In this document: positions 1-13,768 of the stretch, in pieces | Numbering within the stretch: the stretch's first letter is position 1 | Layout: each line of letters opens with the position of its first letter | DNA from: a virus | Taxonomy: Duplodnaviria > Caudoviricetes | DNA length: 60,893 nt | Reading direction: 5' to 3' (one strand) | Virus record (IMG/VR): IMGVR_UViG_3300035704_000009 | Coordinates: 1 to 60,893 of that record | Notes under the pieces: generated by a model | Databases searched by the model: none | Seen by the model: the letters and a program-made list of their open reading frames with translations, nothing else | What the model was told of the DNA's origin: nothing | Made by a program: the position numbers and the translations under genes

Positions 1-170
1 TAGCGCACGGCACCGGAGGTGGCCATGCCGCCAGCACGGAGGACCGCGTCGACGATGAACTCGTTCTGGGTCATGTCCAAGATCAGGGCCGGGATGGTCA
101 GGGGGTCCTTCAGGAGCGCGTCAACGGTTACCCGGGGGCCGTCGAGGCTGGAATATGCGGGTGTGGGCAC
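1..170 (-). CDS. Major capsid protein, N-terminal part (runs off the window)
   Basis: Not in ORF track. Manual translation from GTG at 170: MPTPAYSSLDGPRVTVDALLKDPLTIPALILDMTQNEFIVDAVLRAGGMATSGAVR, resembling actinophage capsid N-termini. AAGGA RBS upstream; follows protease/scaffold and decoration genes. Confidence 0.75.
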   Translation of the reverse strand, partial: MPTPAYSSLDGPRVTVDALLKDPLTIPALILDMTQNEFIVDAVLRAGGMATSGAVR

Positions 171-197
171 GGTGCGTACACATCCTTTTTGGGTCGC

Positions 198-233
198 TCA
201 TGCACCCACGGAGGGTGTATGATGGGTACATGA
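198..233 (+). promoter_or_regulatory. Leaderless promoter with inverted-repeat operator for the arc-tnpB operon
   Basis: TATGAT at 218-223, 6 nt before ATG 230. Flanking arms TCATGCACCCA (198-208) and TGGGTACATGA (223-233) form an inverted repeat with 1 mismatch. Confidence 0.6.
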
Positions 234-373
234 CGAAGCACATCTCGCTGCGTGTGCCGGACGAGTTGCTAGCGCGGCTTCAGGCCGCTGCTGGGCGGGA
301 TCGGCGCTCGCTGAACAGCGAGGTTTTGTGGCTGCTGGAGCGCGGGCTAGATCAGGACGAGGCTGGCGAGTGA
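230..373 (+). CDS. Arc-like ribbon-helix-helix DNA-binding protein
   Basis: MTKHISLRVPDELLARLQAAAGRDRRSLNSEVLWLLERGL has the Arc signature (LRxP...RSLNSE). GTGA overlap with tnpB. Confidence 0.85.
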   Translation: MTKHISLRVPDELLARLQAAAGRDRRSLNSEVLWLLERGLDQDEAGE

Positions 374-1572
374 GCCGGTTCCGCCTCTGCCCGACGCCTG
401 CTCAGGAGGCGATCCTCCGAGAGCACTGCGCGCATGCCCGGTTCGTGTGGAACCTGTGCGTCGAGCAGCAGACGTGGTGGCGCCCGGGCAGGGGCCCCGT
501 ACCCGGCTGGGCGGAGCGAAGCCGGCAGCTCACCGAGGCGAGAGCGGCCGAGCCGTGGCTTGCTGCCGGGAGCGCCATGGTGCAGCAGCAAGCACTGCGG
601 GACTACGGCCAGAGCATGGACATGTTCTATGGCGGTTCGTGCGGCAAGCCGTCATGGAGAAAGGCCAAGCGCAACGAGGGCTTCCGTATCGTGGGCGCAC
701 GCGGAAGCGTGCGGCACTGCTGCTGGGACGTCCGCCGTCTCTCGCGCCATGTCGGCGAGGTCCGTATCCCGAAGGTCGGGTGGGTCCGGTTCCGCTGGAG
801 CCGTGCCGTTCCGGATGCGAGGTCCTACCGGATCACGATGGATCGCGCTGGCCGCTGGCATGTCGCGTTCGCTGCGATCCCAAGCCCTGTCCCGGGTCCC
901 GGAACCGGGGAAGTGGTCGGCGTAGACCGTGGCGTGACTATAAGTGCGGCATTGTCCACGGGAGAAATGCTGACCGCGCCGCGCCTGAGTCCCGCACGAC
1001 AGCGACGGCATATCCGGCTTCAGCGCAGACTGGAGCACGCGAAGCGCGGCTCCAACAGCCGAGCCAAAATCCGTCTGCGCCTCGCAAGATTGCGAACCCG
1101 CGATCGTTGCGCCCGCAGAGACTGGGCCGAGAAGACGAGCACGGACATCGCCCGGCGGTTCGACCTGATCCGGATCGAGGATCTGCATGTTGAAGACATG
1201 ACCAGGAAGTCGGCACCCAGGCCCGACCCTGTTCGGCCAGGGGCCTTTCTCTCAAATCGCGCCAGCGCCAGGGCGGGACTCAACCGTGAGATCCGCGCCA
1301 GCGGCTGGGGCTTGCTCGCGCAACGGCTGGAAGAGAAGGCACCTGGCCGAGTTGAGAAGATCAACCCCGCCTACACGTCACAGACCTGCAATGCCTGCGG
1401 ACACTGCGAACCCGGGAACCGCGAGAGCCAAGCGTTCCTGTGTAAGCACTGCGGGCACACGGATCATGCTGACGTGAATGCGGCTAAGAACATCGCGGCA
1501 GGGCATGCCGTGACTGCGCGGGGAGGCTTCCGGGTTGCCGGGCCGTTGAACCGTGAACCTCGGGCTGCCTAG
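370..1572 (+). CDS. tnpB: TnpB RNA-guided nuclease #1 (IS200/IS605 family), RuvC triad intact
   Basis: N-terminal RFRLCPT..Q..L..H..ARFVWN; RuvC-I VGVDRG, RuvC-II IRIEDL, zinc finger CNACGH/CKHCGH, RuvC-III ADVNAAKNI. Start placed at GTG 370. Confidence 0.95.
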   Translation: MSRFRLCPTPAQEAILREHCAHARFVWNLCVEQQTWWRPGRGPVPGWAERSRQLTEARAAEPWLAAGSAMVQQQALRDYGQSMDMFYGGSCGKPSWRKAKRNEGFRIVGARGSVRHCCWDVRRLSRHVGEVRIPKVGWVRFRWSRAVPDARSYRITMDRAGRWHVAFAAIPSPVPGPGTGEVVGVDRGVTISAALSTGEMLTAPRLSPARQRRHIRLQRRLEHAKRGSNSRAKIRLRLARLRTRDRCARRDWAEKTSTDIARRFDLIRIEDLHVEDMTRKSAPRPDPVRPGAFLSNRASARAGLNREIRASGWGLLAQRLEEKAPGRVEKINPAYTSQTCNACGHCEPGNRESQAFLCKHCGHTDHADVNAAKNIAAGHAVTARGGFRVAGPLNREPRAA

Positions 1573-1632
1573 CAGCCCGGAATCCTCGGTCATGGCCCGG
1601 GGAGGATGCCAAAGCTCGCTCGATGGTCCTCA
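1480..1632 (+). ncRNA. Predicted omegaRNA/reRNA of TnpB #1; guide about 1613-1632 (AGCTCGCTCGATGGTCCTCA)
   Basis: Hairpin CGGGCTGC-CTA-GCAGCCCG (1561-1579), then IS605-type right end GGAATCCTC...GAGGATGCCAA ending at 1612. 5' boundary is approximate. Confidence 0.65.
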
Positions 1633-1902
1633 GTGTTCCTTGATGGTGACGTCGTAGAACTTCGTCGGATCGAAGGGTGGGTGGCTAATTGACGTGGCCG
1701 GACTGCCGCTGAAAGTAACCCTGACCATTACGGCGACTTGGTAGTCAGAGTTCAGGGCCCCGTACAACCACGTGATGTAGCCACCATCATCAGTAGTCGG
1801 ATCGGCGAGGTTTACGAACGACAAGACATTCCCGCTGGTGCCATCCGGGGCGCTATTGATATTGATGTGGGTGGCCGCAAGCACCACATCTCCGCTGGCC
1901 AT
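1630..1902 (-). CDS. Hypothetical protein (possibly virion-associated)
   Basis: 90 aa ORF coupled (TGATG) to the decoration gene; lower GC than neighbours. Confidence 0.65.
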   Translation of the reverse strand: MASGDVVLAATHININSAPDGTSGNVLSFVNLADPTTDDGGYITWLYGALNSDYQVAVMVRVTFSGSPATSISHPPFDPTKFYDVTIKEH

Positions 1903-2369
1903 CAGCCGAAGATGCGGGCTCGGCCCACGACGTTGGTGGCGACGACCACGCCGCCGGGCTGGGTGCAGCGGCCGATGATGGTCTCCGCGAGGGTGTCGGT
2001 GCCGCTGACCCAGGGGGTGACCTTGCCGCTGGCGGCGGACTTCAGGAGCGTCCCGAAGTCGCAGTCGATGGCGTAGGTGACGTGCATGTCGGCGCCGTGG
2101 TAGACGCTGACGTAGTCGGGCAGGACGCTGATGTCCACTAGCGGCTGGCCGTAGCCGGTGGTGTCGCCGGCCTGGTTGGGGATCGGCGCGGCGTCGTTCC
2201 CGGCCACGCCGAGGACGTTGAGCGCGCCGTGGCTGCTGGAACCGGCGCCGGCGACCGAGACCGTGGTGGCCGGGCTGGCGTCCGCGACGACCAGCTGGCC
2301 GCCGAGTACCTGCGCCGAGACCTGGTAGCTATCCGGGCCGTGCTTGACGTGGGGCAGAGAGCCGGGCAT
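1902..2369 (-). CDS. Head decoration/capsid cement-like protein
   Basis: Gly/Ala/Val-rich beta protein (VLGGQLV, VLGVAGNDA, LKSAASGKV) between scaffold and capsid genes. Confidence 0.65.
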   Translation of the reverse strand: MPGSLPHVKHGPDSYQVSAQVLGGQLVVADASPATTVSVAGAGSSSHGALNVLGVAGNDAAPIPNQAGDTTGYGQPLVDISVLPDYVSVYHGADMHVTYAIDCDFGTLLKSAASGKVTPWVSGTDTLAETIIGRCTQPGGVVVATNVVGRARIFG

Positions 2370-2397
2370 CGTTCACCGTCCTGTTGCGGGTTTGGGC

Positions 2398-2428
2398 ATG
2401 AAAAAAGCCCGCCAGGCGGACGGGCAGG
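2398..2428 (-). terminator. Intrinsic terminator-like hairpin
   Basis: Minus strand GCCCGTCCGCCTGGCGGGC followed by TTTTTTCATG. Confidence 0.6.
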
Positions 2429-2449
2429 GGTTTGGGATGAGGGGCTGGG

Positions 2450-2716
2450 CTAGTTGCTGGTGCCGACCTGGCCGCCTGTTTCCTGGACGGCGGACAGAGG
2501 CAGCAGGGCGTCCGCGTTGACGGTGGTGATCGCCGTGTACAGTTCCCCGCCGTCGTCCAGGACGATGGGCTGGCCCTTGGGGAACGTGGTGTCCTGCAGC
2601 TGGGTCCAGGTCGCCGGGTCGGTGGACGCGGAGCCGTTGCCGTTCAGGGCGTCCGGGACAGCCGTGCCGGCGGGGACCGTCACGTCAGCGGCGAGGGTGT
2701 AGGCGCCGATCGCCAT
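2450..2716 (-). CDS. Hypothetical head-region protein
   Basis: 88 aa ORF in operon orientation, directly after protease/scaffold. Confidence 0.7.
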   Translation of the reverse strand: MAIGAYTLAADVTVPAGTAVPDALNGNGSASTDPATWTQLQDTTFPKGQPIVLDDGGELYTAITTVNADALLPLSAVQETGGQVGTSN

Positions 2717-2719
2717 GGG

Positions 2720-4009
2720 CTAGAGGCCGTACTTGCCGGAGTGCACGATCTCGTTGACCAGGCCCTGCCGCTCGGCCACGGCGGCGTCCTCGGCGGCCTT
2801 CTCGGCCTCGGCGCTGAAGTCCAGCGGGGTGCCGAGCTCACCGGACAGGTCCAGCATCTTGACCGTCTTGCCGACCTCGGCGAAGACCTTGCGCATGATC
2901 GCGCCGGCGTCCACGGACGAGCCGTTGGCCAGTTCCACGACGTGGCCGTTCCCGCGCAGCAGCGGGCGGGCCAGGTCGGTGATCCGCGGCGGGATGCCGA
3001 ACTCGCGGGACAGGTGGCCGCGCTCCTTCTCGAACGCCGCGTCGTCCAGTGCGGAGGTGACCCGGGCCAGTTCCAGTTCGGTCTGCTCGGCGCGGGCGTT
3101 GGCCAGGTCGATCGCGGCCTGCTGCTCCGACGAGAACGCCGCGCCGGCCGTGGCAGGCACCTTGTCCTCCGCAGCCGGCTCCCCGTCCTCGCCGCCCTCG
3201 TCCTCATCCTCGGGGCCGTCCTCGGCGGGGAGGGAGTCGATGAGGGCCTGCAGTTCCTCGTCGGACAGCTCGTCCTCCGTGGCGCCTTCGGTGCCTTCCG
3301 GCGTGGTCTCGGCGGCGGCGAGGAGCGCGGTGAACTTGTCCTCGTCCAGGTCCAGCAGCCTGCCCAGCCGGGCTTCCTGCTCAGTGGTCAGGGCCATATC
3401 GTGTTCCTCCGTTGCGGGAGTGCCGGGGTCGGCTGGTGGTGTGTCCTGCGGTTCCGTCTTGCGGTGCTTCCCGGCCGTGGGACTTTCCGGGGCGGCGTAG
3501 TCGGTGTCGGTGAGGTCCAGGACTTCCCCGTCCTCGTTGGATGCCTCCACGGCCTGCCACGGGCGCATCCCGGTGATGCGGGGGTCCAGGGTGCCGAGGA
3601 CGTGCTGGAGGGCGATCCGGAAGTTCCGGCCGTCCGCGCGGGCATAGTCCTCCACGATCCGGGCCGACACGCCGAGGTGCGGGTTGGAGCGCAGCAGCGC
3701 GTCGCCGTCCTCGGTGGCCGCGACGATCACGTCCAGGCCGTCGTCGGTCATCTCGAGCGCCGCGACCTCGCCGCGGAAGCGCTCCGGGTCGTTGGAGTGG
3801 GAGTTGTCGCCCGGCGCGATCTGGAAGGGCACCTGGTCATAGGCGCGGTCCCGGAATGCCGCGGCCAGTTCGGTGAGGTACTGGCGGTCGAACCGGATCT
3901 TGCGGCCCTTGTAGTCAATGGTGCCTACGGGCAGGAGTTGCTTGCGCCAGATGCGCCGGCCCGCAGGCTGGGCGCTGCCCTTGTCATAGGGGGTCAGGAG
4001 CGCGGTCAT
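2720..4009 (-). CDS. Mu-like prohead protease fused to scaffold
   Basis: N-domain resembles Mu gpI-type protease (GTIDYKG..F, HSNDPE, GVSARI, HVLGTLDPRITGM); acidic coiled-coil C-half with an internal Met. Confidence 0.75.
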   Translation of the reverse strand: MTALLTPYDKGSAQPAGRRIWRKQLLPVGTIDYKGRKIRFDRQYLTELAAAFRDRAYDQVPFQIAPGDNSHSNDPERFRGEVAALEMTDDGLDVIVAATEDGDALLRSNPHLGVSARIVEDYARADGRNFRIALQHVLGTLDPRITGMRPWQAVEASNEDGEVLDLTDTDYAAPESPTAGKHRKTEPQDTPPADPGTPATEEHDMALTTEQEARLGRLLDLDEDKFTALLAAAETTPEGTEGATEDELSDEELQALIDSLPAEDGPEDEDEGGEDGEPAAEDKVPATAGAAFSSEQQAAIDLANARAEQTELELARVTSALDDAAFEKERGHLSREFGIPPRITDLARPLLRGNGHVVELANGSSVDAGAIMRKVFAEVGKTVKMLDLSGELGTPLDFSAEAEKAAEDAAVAERQGLVNEIVHSGKYGL

Positions 4010-5187
4010 GCTGCCGCCTTCTGGTGCATCGCCGCAGCCCGCCTGGCCAGCGCTTCGGCCTGGGCGGGCTTCATGCCCTTGGCGATCAGCTTCTTGTAGA
4101 CGGCCTGGGCGTAGGGGGACAGGCCAGACGGACCGCCGCTGCCGGCTGGCTTCCCGCTTCCCATGGTGGTCACCCGGGGGCCGTCAGAGGATGAGGCATT
4201 CGACGTGACCGGGAGCGACCCGGCGAGGTCCACGGCCTTCCCGTCGTCGTTGCTCGCGGCCACGCCCATCTGCTGGGCGGGTACCATCGCGGTGCCGGAC
4301 TTCGAGCCAGCGGCGAGGCGGTTGTGCACGGCGATCAGCCCGGCCAGCGCACCCTGCTGCGAACCTGACGCGGGGGCCTTGACTCCCGAGGCGTGGGTGC
4401 CCTGGTAGCCGCGTCCCTTCGCGGCCAGGGTGCCGACCTTCATGCCGGTGCTCTTGTGCTGCACGGTGATGGTGCCGGGGCCGGAGCGGCTCATCTGCAC
4501 GTCGGCGGCACCGCGGACCTTCGGCATCCTGCGGGCTGCGGCCATCTCGATCACCTTCCCGTGTTCTGCGGCCAGGCGCGTGGTGGAGGCGCTCGCGAGC
4601 GATGCGCGCTGCGCCCGGGCGACCAGTGCCCGCCCGGCCGGCGTGCCGATGTCGGCTTTGGCGACGGCTGCGGCGCGGCCTTCCCGGGTGGACAGATCCG
4701 GTGCACTGGGGTGCGTGTGGTCAAGGTCGCCGCGCATCCGGTGCTGCTCGGCGTGGCCAGCCTGCAACTGGGCGATCGACGGGCTCTTGGGGCCGACCCG
4801 CCGGCCGCCAGCGGGAACCCCGCTGTGATGCTCGGTCATGTGCTGGACCAGCTGACCCTTGGTGCCCTCGAAGACCCAGCCGTGGCTGTAGCCCTTCGGG
4901 CCGGTCAGCTCGACGGCCGGGCCGTCGTTCGCTGCCTGGAATGCCCAGGTGCCCTTCACGCCCGGCGCGTTCGTGGCCTTGAGCTCCTTGGCCCGCTTGC
5001 GGATCAGCGCGGCGAGGGCCGGGCGCTTGGAGGCGGGAGCGCGGCCGACCGAGCGGATCGCGCGCTTGAGGTAGTCCACGTTGGGGATCGGGAAACTCGG
5101 CGGCGAGCCGGGCGCAGCGGGCAGCGCCTGTCCCATGGCCGCGAGCTTCCTGCGGCCTGCGGCGCGCTGCGGTGGCGGTGTCTTCAC
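4006..5187 (-). CDS. Multi-module basic head/core protein
   Basis: Start re-assigned to GTG 5187 (GGAGG RBS); modules FPIPNVDYLKRAIRSVGRA and GPKGYSHGW; ATGA-coupled to protease. Confidence 0.7.
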   Translation of the reverse strand: MKTPPPQRAAGRRKLAAMGQALPAAPGSPPSFPIPNVDYLKRAIRSVGRAPASKRPALAALIRKRAKELKATNAPGVKGTWAFQAANDGPAVELTGPKGYSHGWVFEGTKGQLVQHMTEHHSGVPAGGRRVGPKSPSIAQLQAGHAEQHRMRGDLDHTHPSAPDLSTREGRAAAVAKADIGTPAGRALVARAQRASLASASTTRLAAEHGKVIEMAAARRMPKVRGAADVQMSRSGPGTITVQHKSTGMKVGTLAAKGRGYQGTHASGVKAPASGSQQGALAGLIAVHNRLAAGSKSGTAMVPAQQMGVAASNDDGKAVDLAGSLPVTSNASSSDGPRVTTMGSGKPAGSGGPSGLSPYAQAVYKKLIAKGMKPAQAEALARRAAAMHQKAAA

Positions 5188-5220
5188 TGCCCTGCCTCCC
5201 TGAGCCCTATCATCTGGCTT

Positions 5221-5487
5221 ATGCGGGAACGTCAGCGCCTCATGGTCAGCAGGCAGCACGGAGTCACTGCGCACACCGAGATCATTGATGATGACGCCGG
5301 CTTCGCGCAGCGGGCACGTGAGCTGAAAGACTGCGTGCCACCCGGCTTTGGTCCCGTCACGGGCCGGTTCATCGCTGTCACCTGCAACGGCTGCGGCGCT
5401 TCGGAGCGCCTGGACTTTGACCAGCCACAACTGCCCGGCAACTGGATCACGCGCGATTCCGGAGAGTTCTGTCCTGCCTGCCAGTGA
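5221..5487 (+). CDS. Small antisense leaderless gene, CxxC...CPxC zinc-binding protein
   Basis: TATCAT at 5208-5213, 7 nt before ATG; motifs CNGC and CPAC. Confidence 0.6.
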   Translation: MRERQRLMVSRQHGVTAHTEIIDDDAGFAQRARELKDCVPPGFGPVTGRFIAVTCNGCGASERLDFDQPQLPGNWITRDSGEFCPACQ

Positions 5488-5497
5488 AGACCGGGGG

Positions 5498-5593
5498 TTA
5501 GGACGCCACTGCCAGCCGGTCACCCCGCGCCCAGGAGTATCCGGGCGGTGGAAGGGTCGTAGCCCGCACCTGCGGTCTGCGCTCACCCATCGC
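5498..5593 (-). pseudogene. Displaced ancestral 3' end of the 7050-8621 gene; its start supplies the TnpB #2 guide
   Basis: Translates AMGERRPQVRATTLPPPGYSWARGDRLAVAS*, homologous to the resident C-terminus AMDAPQRAAMRSVILPPPGFEWTTADRLAVAAL*. Confidence 0.85.
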
Positions 5594-5720
5594 TTGACAT
5601 CCTCGCCAACCCTAAGGACGGCGATTCCTGGTGTGCTTATGCAGCACTTTCCAGAGGTTCACGGACGCTCGGTGTCGCCCCTCCGGCATGCCCTGCCGCG
5701 ATGTTGATACTGGCGTTGAG
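5574..5720 (-). ncRNA. Predicted omegaRNA of TnpB #2; guide about 5593-5574 (GCGATGGGTGAGCGCAGACC)
   Basis: Minus-strand right end GGAATCGCCGTCCTTAGGGTTGGCGAGGATGTCAA ending at 5594; 5' boundary approximate. Confidence 0.7.
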
Positions 5721-6878
5721 ATCCGCGTTGCAGGTGAAGCCACAGTTGGTGCAGACAAACTCGGCTTGGCTCTTGCGCGAGTTCTTGTCGATCCAACCGC
5801 AGCCGCTGCAACGCAGGCTGGTGTAGGCGGCCCTGACCTTCTCCACCCGGCCCGGCGCTTTGTCCTCGGTGCGCCGGGCCAGCATTCCCCAGCCCTGCGC
5901 AAGGATGGCCCGGGTTAGCCCGGATTTCTGCGCAACGTTCTTGCCTGGCCGCTGAATGGTGCCCTTGGCGCTGGCCGTCATGTTCACGATCCGCAGATCT
6001 TCAAAGCGGATCACATCAAATCGGCGGGCCAGTCCCGTGGAAGTCTTCTCTACCCAGTCCTTGCGGATGTCAGCGCTGCGGGCATGCAGCCGGCCAAGCT
6101 TGGCGTACTCGGCGGCCTTTGCCGGGGAATCCTTCGGCGCTCGCGCCGCACGCTGCTCGGCTTTCCGCAGCGCGGCTTCCTGCTGCACCGGGAGGCCGGG
6201 GCAGTGCAGGGTCTCGCCCGTTGATAGTGCGGCAGTGATTGCTATACCCCGGTCGATGCCTACGACCTCGCCCGTGCCGGGGCCTGGGATCGGTGCCGGA
6301 ATAACAGCGAAGCCCACGTGCCAGCGCCCGGACCGGTCCAGGGTTACCCGGAAGGACTTGCACTCAGGGACGGTGCGGGACCAGCGGAACCGGACCCAGC
6401 CGACCTTGGGGATCTTCACCTGGCCCCATCGGCGGTTGAGGCGCCGGGCATCCCAACTACAGCCCCCGCCGGGACCGCGCCTGCCCGTAATCCGGAAGCC
6501 TTCGTTCCGGTACTTCTTCCGGCGGCCGGGGTAGCCGTGCGTGCCAGCCAGAAAGTACCGGAAGGACTGCTCGAAATCCCGCAACGCCTGCTGCTGGACG
6601 TTCACCGAGCCTGCGGCTAGCCACTCAAACTCGGCACGCGCTTCGGTCAGCATCCGGCACTGTTCCATGAGTCCCGGTAGCGGGACGGTCGGACGCCGTT
6701 TCTGGTGAATGCAGGTGTTCCCGTCCCGATCCGTGCGACGGGAGGCGTTGCCGTAGGTTTCCAGTCGGCCGAAGTCATGCAGACTGGCGGCTAGGTTCCA
6801 TATGTACCGCGCATGCGCACAGTGCTGCCGCAGGATTGCCTCCTGCGGCACTGTCGGATACAGCCGGTACCTGGACAT
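5637..6878 (-). CDS. tnpB: TnpB RNA-guided nuclease #2, RuvC triad intact
   Basis: RYRLYPT; VGIDRG; IRFEDL; CSGCG/CTNCG; ADLNASINI. Confidence 0.95.
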   Translation of the reverse strand: MSRYRLYPTVPQEAILRQHCAHARYIWNLAASLHDFGRLETYGNASRRTDRDGNTCIHQKRRPTVPLPGLMEQCRMLTEARAEFEWLAAGSVNVQQQALRDFEQSFRYFLAGTHGYPGRRKKYRNEGFRITGRRGPGGGCSWDARRLNRRWGQVKIPKVGWVRFRWSRTVPECKSFRVTLDRSGRWHVGFAVIPAPIPGPGTGEVVGIDRGIAITAALSTGETLHCPGLPVQQEAALRKAEQRAARAPKDSPAKAAEYAKLGRLHARSADIRKDWVEKTSTGLARRFDVIRFEDLRIVNMTASAKGTIQRPGKNVAQKSGLTRAILAQGWGMLARRTEDKAPGRVEKVRAAYTSLRCSGCGWIDKNSRKSQAEFVCTNCGFTCNADLNASINIAAGHAGGATPSVREPLESAA

Positions 6879-6909
6879 GGGACCATTCTAGCGCAATTAT
6901 GGTCCCATG
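6876..6909. promoter_or_regulatory. Divergent promoter/operator between tnpB #2 and arc
   Basis: Perfect 11-bp inverted repeat CATGGGACCAT / ATGGTCCCATG containing both start codons; minus-strand TAGAAT 6 nt before the tnpB ATG (leaderless). Confidence 0.75.
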
Positions 6910-7053
6910 AAGCACGTCAACCTGCGTGTCCCCGACGACATCCACGCCGTGCTTGTGGCTGCCGCTGAGGCCGAACGCCGCTCGCTCAACAGCATGGTCA
7001 TCATCATGATCGAAGAAGCACTCCAACGCAGAGCGGATCACGCACAGGACTAG
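6907..7053 (+). CDS. Arc-like ribbon-helix-helix protein
   Basis: Not in ORF track: MKHVNLRVPDDIHAVLVAAAEAERRSLNSMVIIMIEEALQRRADHAQD; clear paralog of 230-373. Confidence 0.85.
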   Translation: MKHVNLRVPDDIHAVLVAAAEAERRSLNSMVIIMIEEALQRRADHAQD

Positions 7054-8621
7054 AGCGCAGCCACGGCGAGACGGTCTGCGGTGGTCCATTCAAAGCCAGG
7101 CGGGGGCAGTATGACTGATCGCATCGCCGCCCGTTGTGGGGCATCCATCGCGTTCACCGCCCGTGCGGCTTCCTCTGGCGTGTCGTGGCGGGTCAGGGAG
7201 GTCCGGGCGTGGAACTGGCCCCCCTCGCGCTTGCCGGGCGGGACACGCTCGGTGAGGGCCTCAGCGAACGCCATCTCGAGGAACCGTGTGCCGTCATCGC
7301 CGCCAGCCGCGAGCTTGATCGCCGCTGCCTGCTGGTCCAGCCCGGCCGCGTGGGCTTTCAGGGTCACCACCCGGGCCCGCAGCGTCTTGCGGGTAGCGCG
7401 CATCTGGGAGATCGTGGCCGTCTTCTTCGCCGCGGTCGCCGTGGTGCTCGCCGCGGTCGTGGTGGCCGCAGTCGTGGTGGCCGTGGTGCCCGCTGCGGTG
7501 GTCGTGGTGGTAGCAGCGGCAGGAGCGGTAGCGGCAGCCTTGACCGCAGTGGACGCCTTGGCGGTCGCGGACTTCTTGTTCGCCGCCGCTGCCTTCTGTG
7601 CCGCCGCCGCCTTGACTGCCGAGTGGATCGACGCGGTGAGGCTCGCGATCCGGGCGTTGATCGCCTTCGCCTTCGCCCGGTCGCCGGCGGCCTGCTTCAG
7701 GAGCCCGGCGCGCTTCTGGAGGGCCTGCTGGCGGGTCGCGGGCTTCGGGACTGGCTTGCCGGTCATCTTCGGCGAGGTCTTGGCGGGCTGCTTGGCTTTG
7801 GCGGGCTGCTTCGCTTTGGCGGGGGTCTTGGCCTTAGCCGGGGTCTTCGCGGCGGTCTTCGGTGGCGCGGCCTTGCTGGTGGCAGCCTTGCCGGCCGGGG
7901 CTTTCGCGGCAGCCTTCTTCGGGGCCGCCTTCTTTGCCGTGCTGGCTTTCGCGGTTTTTGCCGTGCTGGCCTTCCCGGTGCTCCCCGAGGAACTGGAGCC
8001 GCTGCCCTTCTTGGCGAACTGGCCGCCCGCGGAACTCCCGGCCGCGACATGCGGGTGCAGGGAGTCGGACGCGCCGCCGGTCGGCTGCTGCTTCCCGCCG
8101 CCGCCCTTGCCGCTGCTCTTCGCCCTCGGGCCGGTCGCACCCGTGGCGATGTTCACCTGCGCGGCGGTGGCCGGCTTCGCCGTCGCGGCTGGCTTGGCGC
8201 TCCTGGTGCCGCCTCCGCCACCGGGTGCCACCAGTGCCAGCTCCAGCCAGGAGCGGGCCATGGCCTCGCCGAGGTCACTGGACAGGTCCACGCCGTCACC
8301 GCCCTGGTTTGAGTGAGCATGAGCGCGGGCCTTCGCGGCTTCCCATTCGGCGAGAGCACGGGTGGCTGCGGCCTGGACATCCGGGTGGACGCGCTTGCCG
8401 TGCCCGGCGTCACCGGCCGCCCAGCGGCGGATTATGCCTACCGCCATCTCGATGGCAGTGCTCTCGTCCTTGGCGCTGCCGCTCCGCTGGAGAGCGTGCG
8501 CGACGTTCTGTATGTAGGCGGGCAACTGGAGGCCCTTGACCCGGAACAGGCCAGGGCCGGACGGGCTGCCGAACGGGTGATGCACCGTGGAGGCGGTCGC
8601 CGTCTGCGCGGTCAGGTCCAT
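7050..8621 (-). CDS. Ala/Lys/Thr-rich putative core/internal head protein
   Basis: Start ATG 8621 (TGATG coupling); LPAYIQNVAHAL domain, GGQF motifs, PAKAK repeats, poly-Thr tract. Confidence 0.7.
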   Translation of the reverse strand: MDLTAQTATASTVHHPFGSPSGPGLFRVKGLQLPAYIQNVAHALQRSGSAKDESTAIEMAVGIIRRWAAGDAGHGKRVHPDVQAAATRALAEWEAAKARAHAHSNQGGDGVDLSSDLGEAMARSWLELALVAPGGGGGTRSAKPAATAKPATAAQVNIATGATGPRAKSSGKGGGGKQQPTGGASDSLHPHVAAGSSAGGQFAKKGSGSSSSGSTGKASTAKTAKASTAKKAAPKKAAAKAPAGKAATSKAAPPKTAAKTPAKAKTPAKAKQPAKAKQPAKTSPKMTGKPVPKPATRQQALQKRAGLLKQAAGDRAKAKAINARIASLTASIHSAVKAAAAQKAAAANKKSATAKASTAVKAAATAPAAATTTTTAAGTTATTTAATTTAASTTATAAKKTATISQMRATRKTLRARVVTLKAHAAGLDQQAAAIKLAAGGDDGTRFLEMAFAEALTERVPPGKREGGQFHARTSLTRHDTPEEAARAVNAMDAPQRAAMRSVILPPPGFEWTTADRLAVAAL

Positions 8622-9055
8622 CAGCCCGCCTGCCTGCTGTGCACCTGGTCCCACGGGCCGTTCGCCGTCTTCGCGGTGCCCACCCATGCCGTCACCGGCT
8701 GGCCGAGCGCCTGGCAGGCCAGGGCGCGGGTGTGACCGTCAACCAGGCGCAGGAGCTTCGTGCCGGGCCTGCGTACCGCGACCACGGGCTTGCGGGTGCC
8801 CGAGCGGATCCGGGCCACGAACGCGGCGATCTTCGGCTTGTCCTTCGCCGCGAGTGCCCAGTTCGGGTCGGCAGCGCTGCGGTCGATCTGGCCGAGGGGC
8901 ACCAGCACCGGGCCCGGTGTCCAGGTCAGGTCGTCCACCCAGGCAAGGGCGCCTGGCGGGTAGTCGCGGGCCAGCTGGAGCTTCACTTCCTGCGCCGTGG
9001 TCAGCTTCCCCGGCGTGGCCAGCGCGGCGTGCGGATCCGAGACGCCTGCGGCCAT
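8621..9055 (-). CDS. ParB/Sulfiredoxin-like N-terminal domain protein
   Basis: PVVAV...LVDGHTRALA motif. Confidence 0.75.
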   Translation of the reverse strand: MAAGVSDPHAALATPGKLTTAQEVKLQLARDYPPGALAWVDDLTWTPGPVLVPLGQIDRSAADPNWALAAKDKPKIAAFVARIRSGTRKPVVAVRRPGTKLLRLVDGHTRALACQALGQPVTAWVGTAKTANGPWDQVHSRQAG

Positions 9056-9084
9056 GTCACCGCCCCGGCGTAGCATGCGTGGGC

Positions 9085-9417
9085 GTGACGGAGCACACAA
9101 GCGCAAGACTCGCGCGGGCGCTGTCCGCGATCCCCGGCGTGCCCCGCGAGATGATCAGGCGGGCGGTCGACGGTCACTACGACGACTACCTGAGCGAGTT
9201 CACGTTCCCGCTGATGGCGCTGGTGCGGGACCTGTCCGCGCTCGCCGCGATACCAGCCACGCCACGGGACTCCCGGCCGCTGCTGCGTGACCTCATCCGG
9301 CAGGTCAAGGCCGGGGAGTTCCGAGGCAGCAACGAGGAGGCGCGAGCGTGGATGGCGTCACCGGAGGGGCTGGAGACGATGCGCGAGATGGCGGCGGGCG
9401 AACTGCCAGCCGGCTAG
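9085..9417 (+). CDS. Antisense leaderless hypothetical protein
   Basis: TAGCAT at 9071-9076 before GTG; coherent 110 aa helical protein (GHYDDYLSEF...WMASPEG). Confidence 0.65.
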   Translation: MTEHTSARLARALSAIPGVPREMIRRAVDGHYDDYLSEFTFPLMALVRDLSALAAIPATPRDSRPLLRDLIRQVKAGEFRGSNEEARAWMASPEGLETMREMAAGELPAG

Positions 9418-9731
9418 GACTCCTGGCGGGTCCGGTCGATGACGTCCTCCACCAGATCCAGCGCCTGGACGAGGCCGTGCAGCCGCTCATGGTCGGCGGC
9501 GATCAGCAGCTCCGACCGCTCGCGCCCCACGAGGCGGAACGGCTTGCCGTCATGCAGCCACCGGCCGCCGTCGTAGCGGCTCGCCCCGCAGGTGCAGCGC
9601 TCTGCGAACGAGCCCTCGGGCAGGTAGCCGGACATCGCGGTGCGGTGACGGCGCAGGAGGCAGCGGATCACATCACGCGGGCCGCGTGGCTGATAGGCGA
9701 AATACTCACCGTCGATGCCATCCACCAGCAC
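9414..9731 (-). CDS. Hypothetical protein
   Basis: 105 aa ORF directly after the MuF-like gene. Confidence 0.55.
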   Translation of the reverse strand: MLVDGIDGEYFAYQPRGPRDVIRCLLRRHRTAMSGYLPEGSFAERCTCGASRYDGGRWLHDGKPFRLVGRERSELLIAADHERLHGLVQALDLVEDVIDRTRQES

Positions 9732-9738
9732 AGGGTAA

Positions 9739-10383
9739 CTACGGCAGCACAGGAGCGCCAGGGTGCGGCGGGCCCGGGAAACAGCGGCAGTTGGGGTGCG
9801 TGGTGCCGGGGTAGCCGATCTTCGGCGGACGGTCCGCGTAAAAGGACTTCCCGTCCGCTGTCCGGCACTCCGGCGTACATCTCGGGTCGATCACGGCATT
9901 CCACGAGAGCAACGGCCCGTGCATGGCCGCCGCGCCGTCAACCGCTGCCGCTGCGGCCATCCTCTGCTGCCCGGCGGCCACGTGTGCATTGAACCAGCGC
10001 CGCTCATCCCCGAGTGCGTCCAGTGCCGCCTGCGTGACCGGCTGGCCCTGGGAGCGTGCCGCGACGACGGCCTGCTGCACACGCTTCGCCGCCGCCAGGA
10101 AGAAGCTCGCCCTCCTGGTGAGATTGGCCCTCACGGCCCATCGCGTGGCGGGGCCGGTCCCTTCCATCACCTCGTGCGGCCAGGAGGCTACGAGGGACGC
10201 CACGGCGGCAAGAGCGGCACCTGAGATGCCAGCGGCCTTGAACGGGGCGCGGAGGGCCGCCGTGAGAGCCTTCGCGGTGTAGTACGCGGCAAGCGCAGCG
10301 ATTATCAGCTCAATGAGCTGATAATCGGCAGGTCGTTGCTGGGGCGGAACGGCCTGCTGCTGAGGTGCCGCCTGTACTGGCAA
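9739..10383 (-). CDS. MuF-like (SPP1 gp7) minor head protein
   Basis: C-terminal WNAVIDPRCTPEC...HPNCRC; GGAGG RBS with TTG start. Confidence 0.85.
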   Translation of the reverse strand: MPVQAAPQQQAVPPQQRPADYQLIELIIAALAAYYTAKALTAALRAPFKAAGISGAALAAVASLVASWPHEVMEGTGPATRWAVRANLTRRASFFLAAAKRVQQAVVAARSQGQPVTQAALDALGDERRWFNAHVAAGQQRMAAAAAVDGAAAMHGPLLSWNAVIDPRCTPECRTADGKSFYADRPPKIGYPGTTHPNCRCFPGPPHPGAPVLP

Positions 10384-10395
10384 ACAGGCACCTCC

Positions 10396-10520
10396 GAATG
10401 AGAGCCCCGTTCAAGGTGACTCCGCCGTCTAGGGGACAGCTTCTCAGGCGGCTTCCGCTGCCTGAAGGGCCAGCCCGGCCCTGAGAATGTTGATTGCCGC
10501 GTTCACGTCGGCGTGGGCCT
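10396..10520 (-). ncRNA. Predicted omegaRNA of TnpB #3; guide about 10415-10396 (CTTGAACGGGGCTCTCATTC)
   Basis: Minus-strand right end GAAGCTGTCCCCTAGACGGCGGAGTCAC ending at 10416; 5' boundary approximate. Confidence 0.6.
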
Positions 10521-11679
10521 CGTGCCCGCACCCGAGACAGCAAAAAGCCCCCCCATCGCGATTCTCCTCGGCGATATGCCCGCACCGGGCGCACCGCTGC
10601 GAGGTGAAGGCGGGGTTCACTGCGATGATCATCCGGGCAGCTTCTTCCGCTTTCTCGGCGAGGACTCGCAGGAACACCCCCCATCCCGCGTCGAGAATCG
10701 ATCTGTTAAGCCCCGATTTGGCCGCCGCACCGTTCGGCTCCCACGAGCCGTCTTCCGCCGGACGCGGCCTCGGGCGGCGGGTCATGTTCGTGACTTGGAG
10801 TGCCTCATGCGCTACAACGTCGTTCTCGCGGACGAGGCGGAGTGCGGTCTTATGGGCGTGGTCCAAGCGCTGTCGGCGGATCTTGGTATGCAGACGGGAA
10901 ACCTTCATCGCAGCGACGCGGTGTTTGCGCGTCCGATCTTGTGCCCTGCGCTGAGGGAATCCCGCTAGGGACTGCTGTGCCGCCGCAAGTTTGTCTGCCG
11001 TTGCTGCGCCGTACCTTGGGTTGGGGACGTGCTTCCCGGTCGAGGTAGACAGGAAGTGCGTCACGCCCATATCGATGCCAACCACCGCGCCCGTGGCCGG
11101 GAGCGGCTCGGCGGGAACGTCGTCGCACGCCAGGATCACGTACCAGCGATTGCCCTCGCGCTTGGCGGTGATGGTCTTCACGCGCCCCTTCACGGTCCGG
11201 TGCTGGTGGACCCGGACGTGGCCGATGCCGAGGAAGCGGACGCGCGTCACGGTTGGGTGCGGGACAGAATCCCAGCAGGCACCGGCCTTTACAGCGGCCC
11301 ACTCCAGCGAATCGAACCGGCCTCGGCTCTTGAATCGTGGATACCCGGATCGCTCTCCGGCCTTTATGCGGCGGAAGAACGCCGCAAATGCCCAGTCAAG
11401 ACGGCGGATGGCGGCGCGCTCACAGGCGAAGGCCCATCGGCCGACACCGTTTGGGTCGGCCAGGCGGATCTCCTGAAGCTGAGCATCCTGGCTGTAGAAG
11501 GTGACCTGGCGATGGCCCATCCGCCACGCCTCCCGCCGCTCCTCAAGGGCGGCGTTGTACAACTGCCTCGTGTCCTCCAGGCACGCCTCAAGTGCAGTGA
11601 CCTGCTTAGAGGTCGGCCGCAGGAGGAACTTGTATGCTCGGAACATCTGCACCGGGTGTTGGTAGTCGGTGTGGGTCAC
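10444..11679 (-). CDS. tnpB: TnpB RNA-guided nuclease #3, RuvC triad intact (true start may be ATG 11646)
   Basis: RAYKFLLRPT..Q; LYNAALEER; YPRFKS; VGIDMG; VAHEAL; CARCGH/CLGCGH; ADVNAAINI. More distant from #1 and #2 than they are from each other. Confidence 0.95.
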   Translation of the reverse strand: MTHTDYQHPVQMFRAYKFLLRPTSKQVTALEACLEDTRQLYNAALEERREAWRMGHRQVTFYSQDAQLQEIRLADPNGVGRWAFACERAAIRRLDWAFAAFFRRIKAGERSGYPRFKSRGRFDSLEWAAVKAGACWDSVPHPTVTRVRFLGIGHVRVHQHRTVKGRVKTITAKREGNRWYVILACDDVPAEPLPATGAVVGIDMGVTHFLSTSTGKHVPNPRYGAATADKLAAAQQSLAGFPQRRAQDRTRKHRVAAMKVSRLHTKIRRQRLDHAHKTALRLVRENDVVAHEALQVTNMTRRPRPRPAEDGSWEPNGAAAKSGLNRSILDAGWGVFLRVLAEKAEEAARMIIAVNPAFTSQRCARCGHIAEENRDGGAFCCLGCGHEAHADVNAAINILRAGLALQAAEAA

Positions 11680-11780
11680 CGGCCCCGGACGTTCGCCCGT
11701 CGCGGGGCCACTTCTGGAAAAGCTTACCCGGTCAGTGCCGACAGCTGCCCGTATGACACCCCTGCATGCCCCCTGTTTTT

Positions 11781-11884
11781 CACGCCCCGTGTGAGGGCCT
11801 GGGCGGTGAAGTACGCGCCGAGGGCGGCGAGGATGGCGGCTGCCGCTGGGGCTGCTGTGGTGGTGCCTGGGTGGCAGTTGGCAT
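11781..11884 (-). pseudogene. Displaced, frameshifted ancestral 5' end of the MuF-like gene
   Basis: MPTATQAPPQQPQRQP, then shifted frame ILAALGAYFTAQALTRGV, versus resident MPVQAAPQQQ...IIAALAAYYTAKALTAAL. RBS/start contexts also match (GAGGTGACCTGATGCCA vs GAGGTGCCTGTTTGCCA). Confidence 0.85.
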
Positions 11885-11913
11885 CAGGTCACCTCGCGGC
11901 TAGCGTCAGAGCC

Positions 11914-12201
11914 ATGACCACGGCCACGCCGCTTGAAGATCCGGCTTACCAGCCCCGGTACCCACCCGCTGGCGGGCTGCCGCCGGACGTCGTGGCCAAG
12001 TGGGGCCCGCGCAGCCAGGTCCGGTGGTTCGACCGCTATCGCGGGCAACTGCGGCGCGCGCCGTCTGCCTTCTGGGACCGCTTCTACTGCACCACGACCG
12101 CGCATCGCGGGAACTGCTGCACCAGTTGCGAGAGCGACTGGCTCATGGGCTACGCGGAAGACATGGAAAGGTGCTGCTGCCGGGCCTACCCGGAGGAATA
12201 G
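11914..12201 (+). CDS. Antisense leaderless Cys-rich hypothetical protein
   Basis: TAGCGT at 11901-11906, 7 nt before ATG; C..H..CCxxC...CCC. Confidence 0.6.
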   Translation: MTTATPLEDPAYQPRYPPAGGLPPDVVAKWGPRSQVRWFDRYRGQLRRAPSAFWDRFYCTTTAHRGNCCTSCESDWLMGYAEDMERCCCRAYPEE

Positions 12202-12204
12202 CAC

Positions 12205-13737
12205 CTAGGCCTTCGGGACACCCTGGATAGGCACGCTGAACGGCTCGTTGATGTCCTCCGGCAGCGGTGCCTTCGACCCGCGCACCAGAGCCTGCTGCGC
12301 GACCTTCGCCGCCGCGTTCACCCCGCCGGCGAGGTGGCCGAGCTGCGCCGCTGCCTTCGGCGGCATCCCCGGCGGTGCCTGCGCGGTGGCCTGCGCCTCG
12401 CGGTCCTTCGCGCCCTGCTGCACGATCGCCGCCACCGCGTCGACGTCCAGGTCCAGCACCGTCGCCAGCCGTTCGGTGATCAGGTCCAGGATCGCGGGCG
12501 GCACCTGCAGGGATGGCGCGACGGCGAGGGACTGGAACAAGCCCACCAGCGACGCCTGGCTCTCATCGGTCAGGGCGCCGAACTTGAACGTGGGGAAGCT
12601 CGCGCCCGGGCCGAAGTTCAGCGTCACCAGGGGGGCGATGACGTCGTGGGTGATCGTCTCGGCGATCTCCTGGCTGATGGCCTGCCGGGACTTGAGGAAG
12701 AACGCGCTCTGGTCCTGGGACAGCGCCAGCGAGCCGCGGCCGAGAGAGGCGAGGGAGGCGAGGCCGGTGAACCCGGCCAGGACGCTCCCCGTCTGCCACG
12801 TCTCGAGGAAGCTGAGGGCGTCGGCGAACTGCCCGGCACCCTTGCCGTCGCTGGCCAGGACCTCGAAGGTCTTGGCCCCGGCCGGGTCGCGGGCGAAGCC
12901 CACCACGCCGGAGGACCGCAGCGAGGCGATGTCGTCAGCCTTCGCGTTGGCCTCGCGCTGGTCCTGGCCGTACACGATGACCTTGGGGAGGCTCTGGGAT
13001 TCCAGGAACTGATACCACAAAAAAATTAGCTTGGTCTTCGTGCGGTACGCCCAGTGGCACAGTTCCAACTCGGACGTGCCGGTCAGCGGCTGGCGGTGCT
13101 TCCCGTTGATGTGGATCAGCGAACGGATACGGCTCACATCCACGTAACCGGGCAGTTTGCTCTGCTTCTGCTGGGCGAGTTGGGCACCCCACAACCAGGT
13201 TTGCTGGCGGAACCCGGTGATCGCGCCGTTCTTCGGGTCGCGCTTCAGTTCGCAGGTCGCGGCGGGGCGGAACGCCAGCTTGTCGTAAACGATCTTGCCG
13301 TCATCCCGGATCGTGAAGACTTTTTCATGGAACGATTTGCGGTAGATCTGGGCACCCGTTACCTGGCCGACCACTTCCGACATGGGCGTCTTCATGCCGC
13401 CCGAGGTGTGCGGGTCCATCAGCACCGAGTTGCAGAACTCCGCCTCGCCCTTGTCGCCCTTCGCCGGCTCGATCGCGCGGGCCGCCTGCCGGATGGGCAG
13501 GGTCAGGACGGCTTCCAGGGCAGCGGCTTGTCCATCCCTCTCGATCATGACCTGGAAGTCCCGGGAAGTGACCTGGCCATAGTCGAACACCGAGCCATCG
13601 GTGCCGAACAGGCCGAACATGCGGTTGCCCAGAAGATCGAACTCGGACCCGATCTCCGCGCCGAGCAGTTGCTTCCGTGTCGCTGGCTTCAGGTCGGGGA
13701 AGGCGACGATCCGGGCGGTCTGCGGGTCAGGAGCCAC
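12205..13737 (-). CDS. Portal protein (Mu gp29/DUF935-like)
   Basis: 510 aa, between terminase and MuF; GSLALSQDQ...IAETITHDVIAPLVTLNFG...PTFKF pattern. Confidence 0.85.
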   Translation of the reverse strand: MAPDPQTARIVAFPDLKPATRKQLLGAEIGSEFDLLGNRMFGLFGTDGSVFDYGQVTSRDFQVMIERDGQAAALEAVLTLPIRQAARAIEPAKGDKGEAEFCNSVLMDPHTSGGMKTPMSEVVGQVTGAQIYRKSFHEKVFTIRDDGKIVYDKLAFRPAATCELKRDPKNGAITGFRQQTWLWGAQLAQQKQSKLPGYVDVSRIRSLIHINGKHRQPLTGTSELELCHWAYRTKTKLIFLWYQFLESQSLPKVIVYGQDQREANAKADDIASLRSSGVVGFARDPAGAKTFEVLASDGKGAGQFADALSFLETWQTGSVLAGFTGLASLASLGRGSLALSQDQSAFFLKSRQAISQEIAETITHDVIAPLVTLNFGPGASFPTFKFGALTDESQASLVGLFQSLAVAPSLQVPPAILDLITERLATVLDLDVDAVAAIVQQGAKDREAQATAQAPPGMPPKAAAQLGHLAGGVNAAAKVAQQALVRGSKAPLPEDINEPFSVPIQGVPKA

Positions 13738-13768
13738 TGGATGCGCTCCCTCCGGTTACGCTGCGGGA

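Follow-up and report, generated by a model that had tools for sequence, protein, structure and literature searches.

TnpB cassettes among the head genes of a metagenomic phage: a possible RNA-guided counterpart of free-standing homing endonucleases

We describe here three transposase-free cassettes, each built around a tnpB gene, that lie between the head genes of the soil-type phage represented by IMG/VR virus record IMGVR_UViG_3300035704_000009. The window, by which we mean the whole stretch analysed, is the complete record (60,893 bases, linear class, a metagenome assembly, about 55% complete, with a guanine-plus-cytosine (GC) content of about 0.70), and its head module runs on the minus strand in the order portal gene, MuF-like gene, orf545, two more unnamed genes, orf155 and capsid gene. 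Directly after the right end of each cassette, where the guide of a TnpB-bound omegaRNA would be read, stands a short piece of the adjoining head gene in a version that differs from the resident one. We propose, with moderate confidence, that the cassettes are an RNA-guided analogue of the free-standing homing endonucleases of phages, as a first-pass annotation of the same DNA had suggested from its letters and reading frames.

Three diverged TnpB genes in the head region

370 to 1572, plus strand: tnpB1, about 400 amino acids, antisense to the head genes
5637 to 6878, minus strand: tnpB2, 413 amino acids
10444 to 11679, minus strand: tnpB3, an open reading frame (ORF) from a GTG at 11679; homologues point to the ATG at 11646 as its start

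These are the only TnpB genes in the record, a self-search having given four matched places of which two were pieces of tnpB2. Domains PF07282, PF01385 and PF12323 were found in three of the ten ORFs tested, namely those of TnpB1 to TnpB3, with all three domains above the Pfam cut-offs in each protein; they make up the HTH_OrfB_IS605, OrfB_IS605 and Cas12f1-like_TNB set, and the proteins match PHROG 506 with E values from 2e-81 to 3e-65. The catalytic RuvC residues, an aspartate-glutamate-aspartate triad (D-E-D; D203, E292 and D391 in TnpB3 numbering), and the zinc-finger cysteines are invariant across TnpB1, TnpB2 and TnpB3. The best match of TnpB3 in the PDB is ISDra2 TnpB (E 7e-33), and its triad aligns to positions 193, 280 and 363 of chain 8h1j_A, which correspond to D191, E278 and D361 of ISDra2 TnpB. 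D191A is the catalytic mutant of ISDra2 TnpB (Karvelis 2021, in excerpt).

In the record search TnpB1 shows 55% identity with TnpB2 and 37% with TnpB3, and in a MAFFT alignment TnpB3 shares 38% of its residues with TnpB1 and 31% with TnpB2. Judging by how far the three proteins have diverged from each other, the cassettes are separate acquisitions and not recent copies. Among phage records, INPHARED holds 145 with TnpB homologues, all below 60% identity; a mycobacteriophage TnpB locus found there was considered as a parallel and set aside, since it sits among early genes. We also note that TnpB2 has, in its N-terminal region, an insertion of about 26 residues (AASLHDFGRLETYGNASRRTDRDGNT; window 6700 to 6780, minus strand) that is absent from TnpB1 and TnpB3.

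Right ends retained, transposase and left ends absent from the window

The right ends were delimited through relatives of the proteins. For TnpB3 we used 80 genomic loci at 52 to 62% identity and a right-end alignment of 62 rows, and for TnpB1 and TnpB2, which we treat as one family, 26 loci at 50 to 65% identity, from 13 of the 401 actinobacterial genomes searched, and a right-end alignment of 27 rows. Conservation in the TnpB3 family continues up to ...GGAGTCAC and then stops abruptly in 60 of the 62 rows (the exceptions are L042 and L107, labels of this form being ours for the loci and contigs compared); in the 27 rows of the TnpB1/2 family it continues up to ...GAGGAYGTCAA and is followed by divergence. 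Two covariance models were built, both with the window sequences excluded: R1 from 23 bacterial right ends, and R2 from 33, of which 32 are from bacterial genomes and one is from the viral contig L028.

1534 to 1612, plus strand: right end and predicted 3' omegaRNA scaffold of cassette 1, ending ...GAGGATGCCAA (R1, 43.8 bits, E 2e-11, full model)
5594 to 5681, minus strand: right end and predicted 3' omegaRNA scaffold of cassette 2, ending ...GAGGATGTCAA (R1, 34.9 bits, E 1e-8, full model)
10416 to 10511, minus strand: right end and predicted 3' omegaRNA scaffold of cassette 3, ending ...GGAGTCAC (R2, 60.2 bits, E 1e-16, full model)
11680 to 11785, minus strand: leader of cassette 3, resembling the inner part of the family left end, without the hairpin and the TAM-side end (TAM, target-adjacent motif)

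The two R1 matches listed are the only ones in the window. In all three cassettes the right end, with its predicted omegaRNA scaffold, overlaps the 3' end of tnpB, and the guide comes next. For ISDra2 the 3' end of the RNA carries about 16 nt of the flanking DNA as its guide, and the cut distance is 15 to 21 bp (Karvelis 2021, in excerpt).

The Y1 transposase (PF01797) and the serine recombinase (PF00239) each gave zero matches in the 60.9 kb record, whose completeness of about 55% limits this result to the window, and hairpin cores of the left ends of both families were found nowhere in the window within three mismatches. The leader of cassette 3 was compared by alignment with the copies in L031 and Microtetraspora, both of which have the hairpin. 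Having no left end, the cassettes as they stand are not mobilisable insertion sequence (IS) elements; with the transposase lost as well, they would be unable to move by peel-and-paste transposition.

The first-pass annotation had reported three diverged tnpB genes with an intact D-E-D triad in the head region, right ends of IS605 type, and no tnpA in the window. The Pfam matches, the alignment and the match to 8h1j_A bear out the first point and the PF01797 search the last, while the right-end boundaries prove correct to the base, the R1 and R2 matches ending at 1612, 5594 and 10416, so that the guides coincide with the stretches that it had named.

Elsewhere, the 90 kb viral contig L029 carries at 3998 to 5238, after genes for a DnaB helicase and a C5-methylase, an Arc-TnpB element of the TnpB1 family that is complete and has its left-end hairpin. 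This is an ordinary IS-type phage insertion and serves us as a contrast case; the viral TnpB relatives L028 and L029 were rejected as comparable cases, their settings not being comparable.

Guides drawn from the adjacent head genes

1613 to 1633, plus strand: guide 1, AGCTCGCTCGATGGTCCTCAG, encoding SSLDGP(Q) in frame, in capsid sense and on the strand opposite to the resident capsid gene
135 to 152, minus strand: TCCAGCCTCGACGGCCCC, the SSLDGP codons of the resident capsid gene, homologous to guide 1
1634 to 1901, no strand assigned: orphan spacer of low GC (0.56), holding an ORF of 90 codons (1630 to 1902, minus strand)
5593 to 5573, minus strand: guide 2, GCGATGGGTGAGCGCAGACCG, encoding AMGERR, the first 21 nt of the orf545 C-terminus remnant
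5498 to 5593, minus strand: detached copy of the orf545 C-terminus, B-type, 31 codons, AMGERRPQVRATTLPPPGYSWARGDRLAVAS, open to its own stop codon
10415 to 10395, minus strand: guide 3, CTTGAACGGGGCTCTCATTCG, reverse complement of ATGAGAGCCCCGTTCAAG and so antisense of (M)RAPFK of MuF
10237 to 10254, plus strand: resident MuF site matching guide 3, CTTGAACGGGGCGCGGAG (12-nt seed, 14 of 18 positions)
11786 to 11884, minus strand: dead MuF N-terminus, B-type, frameshifted, with its own ribosome-binding site and ATG

We call the version of a gene end found in the resident gene A-type, and the version found in a guide or remnant B-type. Guide 1 gives the sharpest case. The resident capsid protein has SSLDGPR at residues 7 to 13, encoded 1.4 kb from guide 1 in quite different codons, and the site agrees with the guide at 10 of 18 positions with a seed of 0 nt. 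The capsid genes of L022/L151 and of L154 carry AGCTCGCTCGATGGCCCG at the homologous codons, which is an exact 14-nt seed and a match of 16 of 18; the capsid gene of L027 is of the resident type, and it and the resident gene match guide 1 at 9 to 10 of 18. On the sequences compared, guide 1 clearly separates two natural classes of capsid codons.

The space between guide 1 and orf155 is absent from the relatives, which have only 45 to 110 nt at that place. The 90-codon ORF in it had no homologue among 5.8 billion proteins and no tblastn match in the relatives, and with no homologue found we rejected it as a real gene. A longer capsid remnant past guide 1 was likewise sought and dismissed, tblastn with four capsid proteins returning SSLDGP and non-colinear scraps only, and the inverted repeat I16 (88 to 113 and 1709 to 1734, 77%) is put down to chance, its spacing not fitting the capsid gene.

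Guide 2 opens a longer piece. The orf545 remnant aligns over 31 residues with the C-termini of orf545 and its homologues (AM..R....LPPPG[FY].W...DRL); the intact orf545, whose end lies 1.5 kb upstream, has a different, A-type version there, identical to the remnant at 61 of 91 bases, and the resident site at 7131 to 7151 matches guide 2 at 13 of 21 positions with a seed of 7 nt. As for guide 3, the resident MuF gene starts 12 nt beyond it and encodes LRAPFK at residues 42 to 47. The dead MuF start upstream of cassette 3 ends ...ACACGGG, a point that in the relatives lies 2 to 3 nt before the stretch copied by guide 3.

In all three cases the target of the guide lies 20 to 150 nt from the gene end that faces the cassette. 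Cassette 2 alone is arranged like a canonical insertion, its right end being followed by a long co-linear flank; guides 1 and 3 are isolated pieces of about 18 to 21 nt, inverted with respect to the resident gene, and similarity stops after them. Elsewhere in the 60.9 kb window no other site matches any of the guides better than chance. As a control, guides of 21 nt were compared with their own flanks at 92 bacterial loci of both families: a peptide match of six residues occurred at one of these and an exact DNA match of at least 12 nt at two, and matches of five residues at 24. In the window, guide 1 shows a six-residue match and guide 3 a 12-nt match, each in the adjacent gene.

These results sharpen what the first-pass annotation had said of the guides. 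SSLDGP of the capsid protein (guide 1) and AMGERR of the orf545 C-terminus (guide 2) are read directly past the right ends, as it had them, and its MRAPFK for guide 3 is indeed a peptide of MuF but lies antisense to that gene. That the resident allele differs is borne out by sequence for guides 1 and 2 and is less clear for guide 3, for which the resident gene keeps the 12-nt seed. The dead gene ends it described are present at the orf545 C-terminus and at the MuF N-terminus, but no long remnant begins with guide 1 or guide 3.

Insertions peculiar to this phage

Among 37 loci (23 and 14) of related viral and metagenomic contigs there was no match to TnpB or Arc, and none of the whole records of five relatives, two of them 100% complete, holds a TnpB domain. 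The gene orf155 adjoins the capsid gene in all four loci that cover both (L010, L013, L022 and L027); portal gene, MuF gene and orf545 stand in the same order in the relatives where the loci reach, and gene order is kept on both sides of the cassettes. Since the relatives examined lack the cassettes and keep the gene order, the three are insertions particular to this phage.

In the cassettes and the adjoining gene ends (7000 to 7200 and 10200 to 10400) the GC content is 0.60 to 0.66, against 0.70 to 0.75 elsewhere in the phage, which fits an arrival of cassette and A-type gene end together. We considered whether the B-type remnants are clearly closer to the relatives than the A-type ends and rejected this, the difference being small (65/90 against 62/96, and 45/55 against 40/53); both types of piece stand at about the same distance from the relatives. 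These relatives are themselves distant, with portal proteins at 51 to 78% amino-acid identity and no close relatives in the collections; metagenome scans gave nothing useful, only five distant relatives at 51 to 76% portal identity.

Two of the relatives have additions of their own in this region. In L175 a portal ORF of 801 amino acids (8471 to 10873) has its Portal_Mu match split by an insert of about 300 residues that contains a LAGLIDADG_3 domain and ends ...THN|C; by its sequence this insert looks like an intein with a homing endonuclease, and classical homing elements would therefore also invade this head module. The 99 kb relative L171 has about 4.4 kb of extra DNA between its MuF gene and its orf545 homologue (12834 to 17200), so that these intergenic positions vary elsewhere in the clade too.

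Arc-type regulators beside two cassettes

230 to 373, plus strand: arc1, a 47-amino-acid Arc-type ribbon-helix-helix gene (Pfam Arc PF03869, 26.8 bits against a cut-off of 20.4)
6907 to 7053, plus strand: arc2, a 48-amino-acid Arc-type gene (Pfam Arc PF03869, 27.5 bits against a cut-off of 20.4)

Cassettes 1 and 2 consist of arc, tnpB and omegaRNA, and cassette 3 of tnpB and omegaRNA without arc. The gene arc1 lies upstream of tnpB1 in the same direction, its stop codon overlapping the tnpB1 start (GTGA), and its own start is 27 nt from sequence homologous to the L022 region upstream of the capsid gene. The gene arc2 is divergent from tnpB2, and its stop codon overlaps that of orf545 at CTAG.

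The divergent start codons of tnpB2 and arc2 stand 28 nt apart, and the gap (6879 to 6906) forms an inverted repeat of 8 + 8 nt (GGGACCAT...ATGGTCCC) around a promoter-like TAGAAT, and a promoter-like pair of hexamers spans 6872 to 6900 in this gap. We regard the palindrome as a candidate Arc operator combined with a shared promoter, which would leave both transcripts with almost no leader. In IS605 elements, Arc is described as repressing the promoter of its element (Moon et al. 2026, preprint, in excerpt).

Host and head module

12205 to 13737, minus strand: portal gene (Pfam Portal_Mu, 93.6 bits), the upstream border of the module
9739 to 10383, minus strand: resident MuF-like gene (Pfam Phage_Mu_F, 35 bits), with a TTG start and its own GGAGGTG ribosome-binding site
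7050 to 8687, minus strand: orf545, called the core protein in the first-pass annotation, a head-module protein with homologues in the relatives
1902 to 2369, minus strand: orf155
1 to 170, minus strand: 5' part of the major capsid gene, with a GTG start at 170 and its remainder beyond the left end of the record

The largest of the nearest relatives are viral contigs of 104 to 110 kb, two of which are rated complete. The closest homologues of the TnpB proteins are in genomes of Streptomyces, Streptosporangiaceae, Nonomuraea and Microtetraspora, and the host is for this reason probably a high-GC actinobacterium. A megablast of positions 1 to 12300 against 50,697 phage records gave no match, and an Rfam scan of positions 1 to 14000 gave no family.

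The capsid N-terminus is 79 to 95% identical to the N-termini of proteins of 303 to 304 amino acids in the relatives, and the L027 homologue matches Pfam Phage_capsid_4 at 27.4 bits against a cut-off of 27. Family and domain searches assigned orf545 to no family. Between the portal gene and the dead MuF start lies a cysteine-rich ORF of 96 codons on the opposite strand (11914 to 12204, plus strand), for which there was no Pfam family and no counterpart in the loci of the relatives. The ORF at 4006 to 5586 (minus strand) begins too far 5': alignment with relatives starts only at about residue 128, and the surplus part overlaps the orf545 remnant in a different frame. From the stop codon of that remnant to the true start of this ORF, some 300 nt are low in GC (0.635 to 0.65).

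RNA-guided homing and its alternatives

Under the homing reading, three independently acquired derivatives of the IS200/IS605 family would have come to lie, in an actinobacterial phage of about 110 kb, between essential head genes, each with an omegaRNA carrying a guide of about 16 to 21 nt copied from the B-type allele of the adjacent head gene, the resident gene end being the diverged A-type allele. If expressed, TnpB with its omegaRNA would cut the B-type essential head gene in a co-infecting related phage or a resident prophage, and the rival genome would either be lost or have its break repaired from the cassette-bearing genome. Such repair would copy the cassette together with the resistant, mismatched gene end, an RNA-guided form of intronless homing or of marker exclusion that would bias inheritance. 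In cassette 2 the B-type remnant beside the right end might serve both as guide and as homology arm, and the role of Arc would be to hold down expression.

All three ORFs and scaffolds are intact and pieces of guide length have come through rearrangement, which argues that the guides have been under selection. That pieces of about 18 to 21 nt, the guide length and cut distance of TnpB, were kept amid rearranged surroundings lends support to homing. The layout of cassette 3 could be derived from a canonical antisense insertion by inverting the cassette with about 19 nt of flank; of the breakpoints so derived, one falls at the TnpB cut distance (15 to 21 bp) and the other in a GGGG microhomology inside the left-end hairpin.

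Several observations weigh against homing. Guide 2 matches four relatives at 9 to 10 of 21 positions, worse than the 13 of 21 of the resident gene, and only its own remnant matches it; guide 3 finds the same 12-nt seed in the relatives (15 of 18) and in the resident MuF gene (14 of 18), so that self-immunity at MuF would have to come from an as yet unproven difference in the TAM or from distal mismatches. No perfect target for any guide was found in IMG/VR, where three scans gave seven hits (two of them capsids at 16 of 18), none, and six (none of them MuF). Nor was a constant TAM found at the targets, only guide 2 coming within one base of a family motif, and the record being about 55% complete, a tnpA could sit in the missing half. 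The guide-target test is itself a weak one, because only distant relatives were on hand.

The flanks deserve to be set out. Left-end flanks are TCAY(C) in the TnpB1/2 family and CCATCA(G) in the TnpB3 family. The five nucleotides before the targets are CATAT at the capsid gene for guide 1; at orf545 for guide 2, TCAAC (three relatives) or TGAAC (L022 and the resident gene); and GCAGC in four relatives and GCGGC in the resident gene at MuF for guide 3. The resident flanks differ from those of relatives in the predicted direction at two sites, with no clean TAM anywhere.

The first-pass annotation had expected near-perfect guide matches in relatives without cassettes, behind a constant 5' TAM. 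Guide 1, at 16 of 18 in two capsid alleles, goes some way towards this, but guides 2 and 3 do not, and neither perfect targets nor the constant motif appeared. The converse outcome, that relatives match no better than the resident allele, is found in part, since for guide 2 they match worse and for guide 3 they have the same seed. Its homing interpretation is partly supported: by the anatomy of free-standing homing cassettes, by the mismatch of the resident alleles to guides 1 and 2 and by the allele split seen by guide 1, but not by the matches of guides 2 and 3 in relatives or by a TAM.

The strongest alternative, tentative in our judgement and less probable than homing, is that the cassettes are inert footprints. 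IS605-family elements would have inserted into the head genes of an ancestor or donor phage, recombination with other phages would then have brought intact gene ends and restored viability, the left ends and tnpA would have been lost, and the cassettes would now be idle, with the matches of guide to gene a mere record of the old insertion sites. Cassette 2 does look like a plain insertion, having a long co-linear remnant and, in three relatives, a TCAAC that is one base from TCAYC. The loss of the left ends, the lack of a TAM that fits guides 1 and 3, the lack of perfect targets and the frameshift in the MuF remnant all accord with idle cassettes. So does the GGGG microhomology at which the left junction of cassette 3 lies, a feature usual in illegitimate joining. 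However, decay would be expected first in the ORFs and scaffolds, and all three ORFs of about 400 codons are intact with their catalytic residues and all three scaffolds are full-length. A simple insertion footprint does not predict that cassettes 1 and 3 keep only a guide-length flank, and that inverted, and the pattern occurs three times within 12 kb here and in none of the records of the five relatives.

A different domesticated role seems quite improbable to us, whether regulation of the phage's own head genes in the manner of TldR, or an attack on the DNA of the host or a resident prophage for takeover or anti-defence. Guide 3 does pair with the resident MuF gene over a 12-nt seed, two of the cassettes have Arc repressors, and nuclease-dead relatives of TnpB that repress transcription exist (Moon et al. 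2026, preprint, in excerpt). Unlike in those dead repressors, though, the D-E-D triad is intact in all three proteins; guides 1 and 2 mismatch the resident genes (seeds of 0 and 7 nt), and no other site in the 60.9 kb window matches a guide better than chance. The targeting of a resident prophage is moreover a special case of homing and not its rival.

Chance resemblance in GC-rich DNA, or a misassembly joining cassettes to a phage contig, is highly improbable: the record is a metagenome assembly and five-residue matches of guide to flank are common in controls (24 of 92), but matches of six residues (1 of 92) or at least 12 nt (2 of 92) are rare and those of the window lie at homologous codons of the adjacent gene, guide 1 is identical over 14 nt to the capsid gene of a relative at the same codons, the cassette 2 remnant aligns over 31 residues, the MuF remnant ends 2 to 3 nt from the stretch copied in guide 3, and the genes flanking each cassette stand in the same order as in the relatives.

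Returning to homing, we would add a bolder version, which we think unlikely. Cassettes 1 and 3 keep only an inverted piece of about 18 to 21 nt, with no family-type TAM at its counterpart, and for this reason TnpB guides might have been re-set without transposition. For instance, a break at the TnpB cut site might free a right end with a protospacer-length tail, to be rejoined elsewhere; alternatively, selection might trim the flank down to the guide. The cassettes would then be in a one-spacer, CRISPR-like state of an OMEGA system, three programmable weapons of the phage against the head genes of its relatives.

Comparison with known systems

TnpB of IS200/IS605 elements is reportedly (a preprint of Meers et al. 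from 2023 is said to describe it) capable of restorative homing at the donor joint. The cassettes share with TnpB-omegaRNA of the ISDra2 type (Karvelis 2021, in excerpt) the protein family, the D-E-D triad, a right-end omegaRNA over the 3' end of the gene and a guide from the DNA that follows; spread by repair of a break from the element-carrying copy, as proposed here, would be a further likeness. They are unlike it in having no TnpA or left end in the window and in that the TAM of their targets is unconfirmed. The target here would be a different allele of a neighbouring essential gene, with an intact diverged copy across the cassette, and not just the empty site, and the guides of two cassettes are detached, inverted pieces of about 19 nt, beyond canonical insertion.

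Spread of IS elements that is driven by TnpB and independent of TnpA has been reported in multicopy plasmids (Mears et al. 2025, preprint, in excerpt), and a section on 'transposon non-restorative homing' names phages as a theoretical possibility (review PMC13565253, section 6.1, in excerpt). In the plasmid gene drive, as in the proposal made here, the process depends on TnpB, the homologue without the element is cut and the copy bearing it gains (Mears et al. 2025, in excerpt). The plasmids, by contrast, have complete IS elements at neutral sites, and here we have phage structural genes with replacement gene ends.

As regards the regulators, the resemblance to Arc of IS605 elements lies in small Arc-family ribbon-helix-helix genes beside tnpB, and arc2, divergent from tnpB2 over a short, palindromic, promoter-like gap, repeats the arrangement described there (Moon et al. 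2026, preprint, in excerpt). The differences from that description (Moon et al. 2026, in excerpt) are that no tnpA stands beside arc, that arc1 is co-directional with tnpB1 and overlaps its start, and that the setting is a phage.

For the T-even phages, the excerpted text of review PMC13565253 treats Seg and Mob under intronless homing and localized marker exclusion, and gives as the hallmark of intronless homing that substitutions in a conserved gene nearby separate self from non-self. The cassettes resemble these nucleases (PMC13565253, in excerpt) in that a nuclease gene lies between conserved genes, is absent from relatives and would have its target in a nearby conserved gene; the proposed consequences, co-conversion of flanking markers or killing of the competitor, would be alike as well. 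Unlike in Seg and Mob, recognition would be by an RNA guide and a TAM, the nuclease is a RuvC-type TnpB and not of the GIY-YIG or HNH kind, and remnants of gene ends lie beside the cassette.

TldR proteins are nuclease-dead, TnpB-like repressors that have lost the RuvC residues. The cassettes are like them in having TnpB-derived guides that are fixed on one gene, independent of transposition and carried on mobile DNA, and differ in that D-E-D is kept in all three proteins, which for this reason are not of the TldR type, and in that the targets would be coding sequences of other alleles and not promoters.

TnpB, omegaRNA, Arc and phage homing are thus all known parts, and it is their combination that appears to be new. 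The literature searched contained no description of such an arrangement, the nearest being the theoretical sentence in review PMC13565253 (2026, in excerpt). What appears novel is a set of transposase-less cassettes beside essential phage genes, with guides against alternative alleles, resistant gene ends, and two guides beyond canonical transposition. TnpB is known to guard or spread its own transposon through cleavage of the empty site, and protein-only homing endonucleases are known to spread phage genes through cleavage of a neighbouring gene in relatives. The locus would unite the two, in that a transposase-free nuclease would have a guide against the rival allele and the resistant allele alongside. 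If active, the cassettes would amount to a programmable gene drive, or system of exclusion, that operates naturally between phages. They would also stand midway between selfish OMEGA elements and systems of defence or offence that bear guides, and would be a source of compact, high-GC TnpB-omegaRNA pairs with known natural targets.

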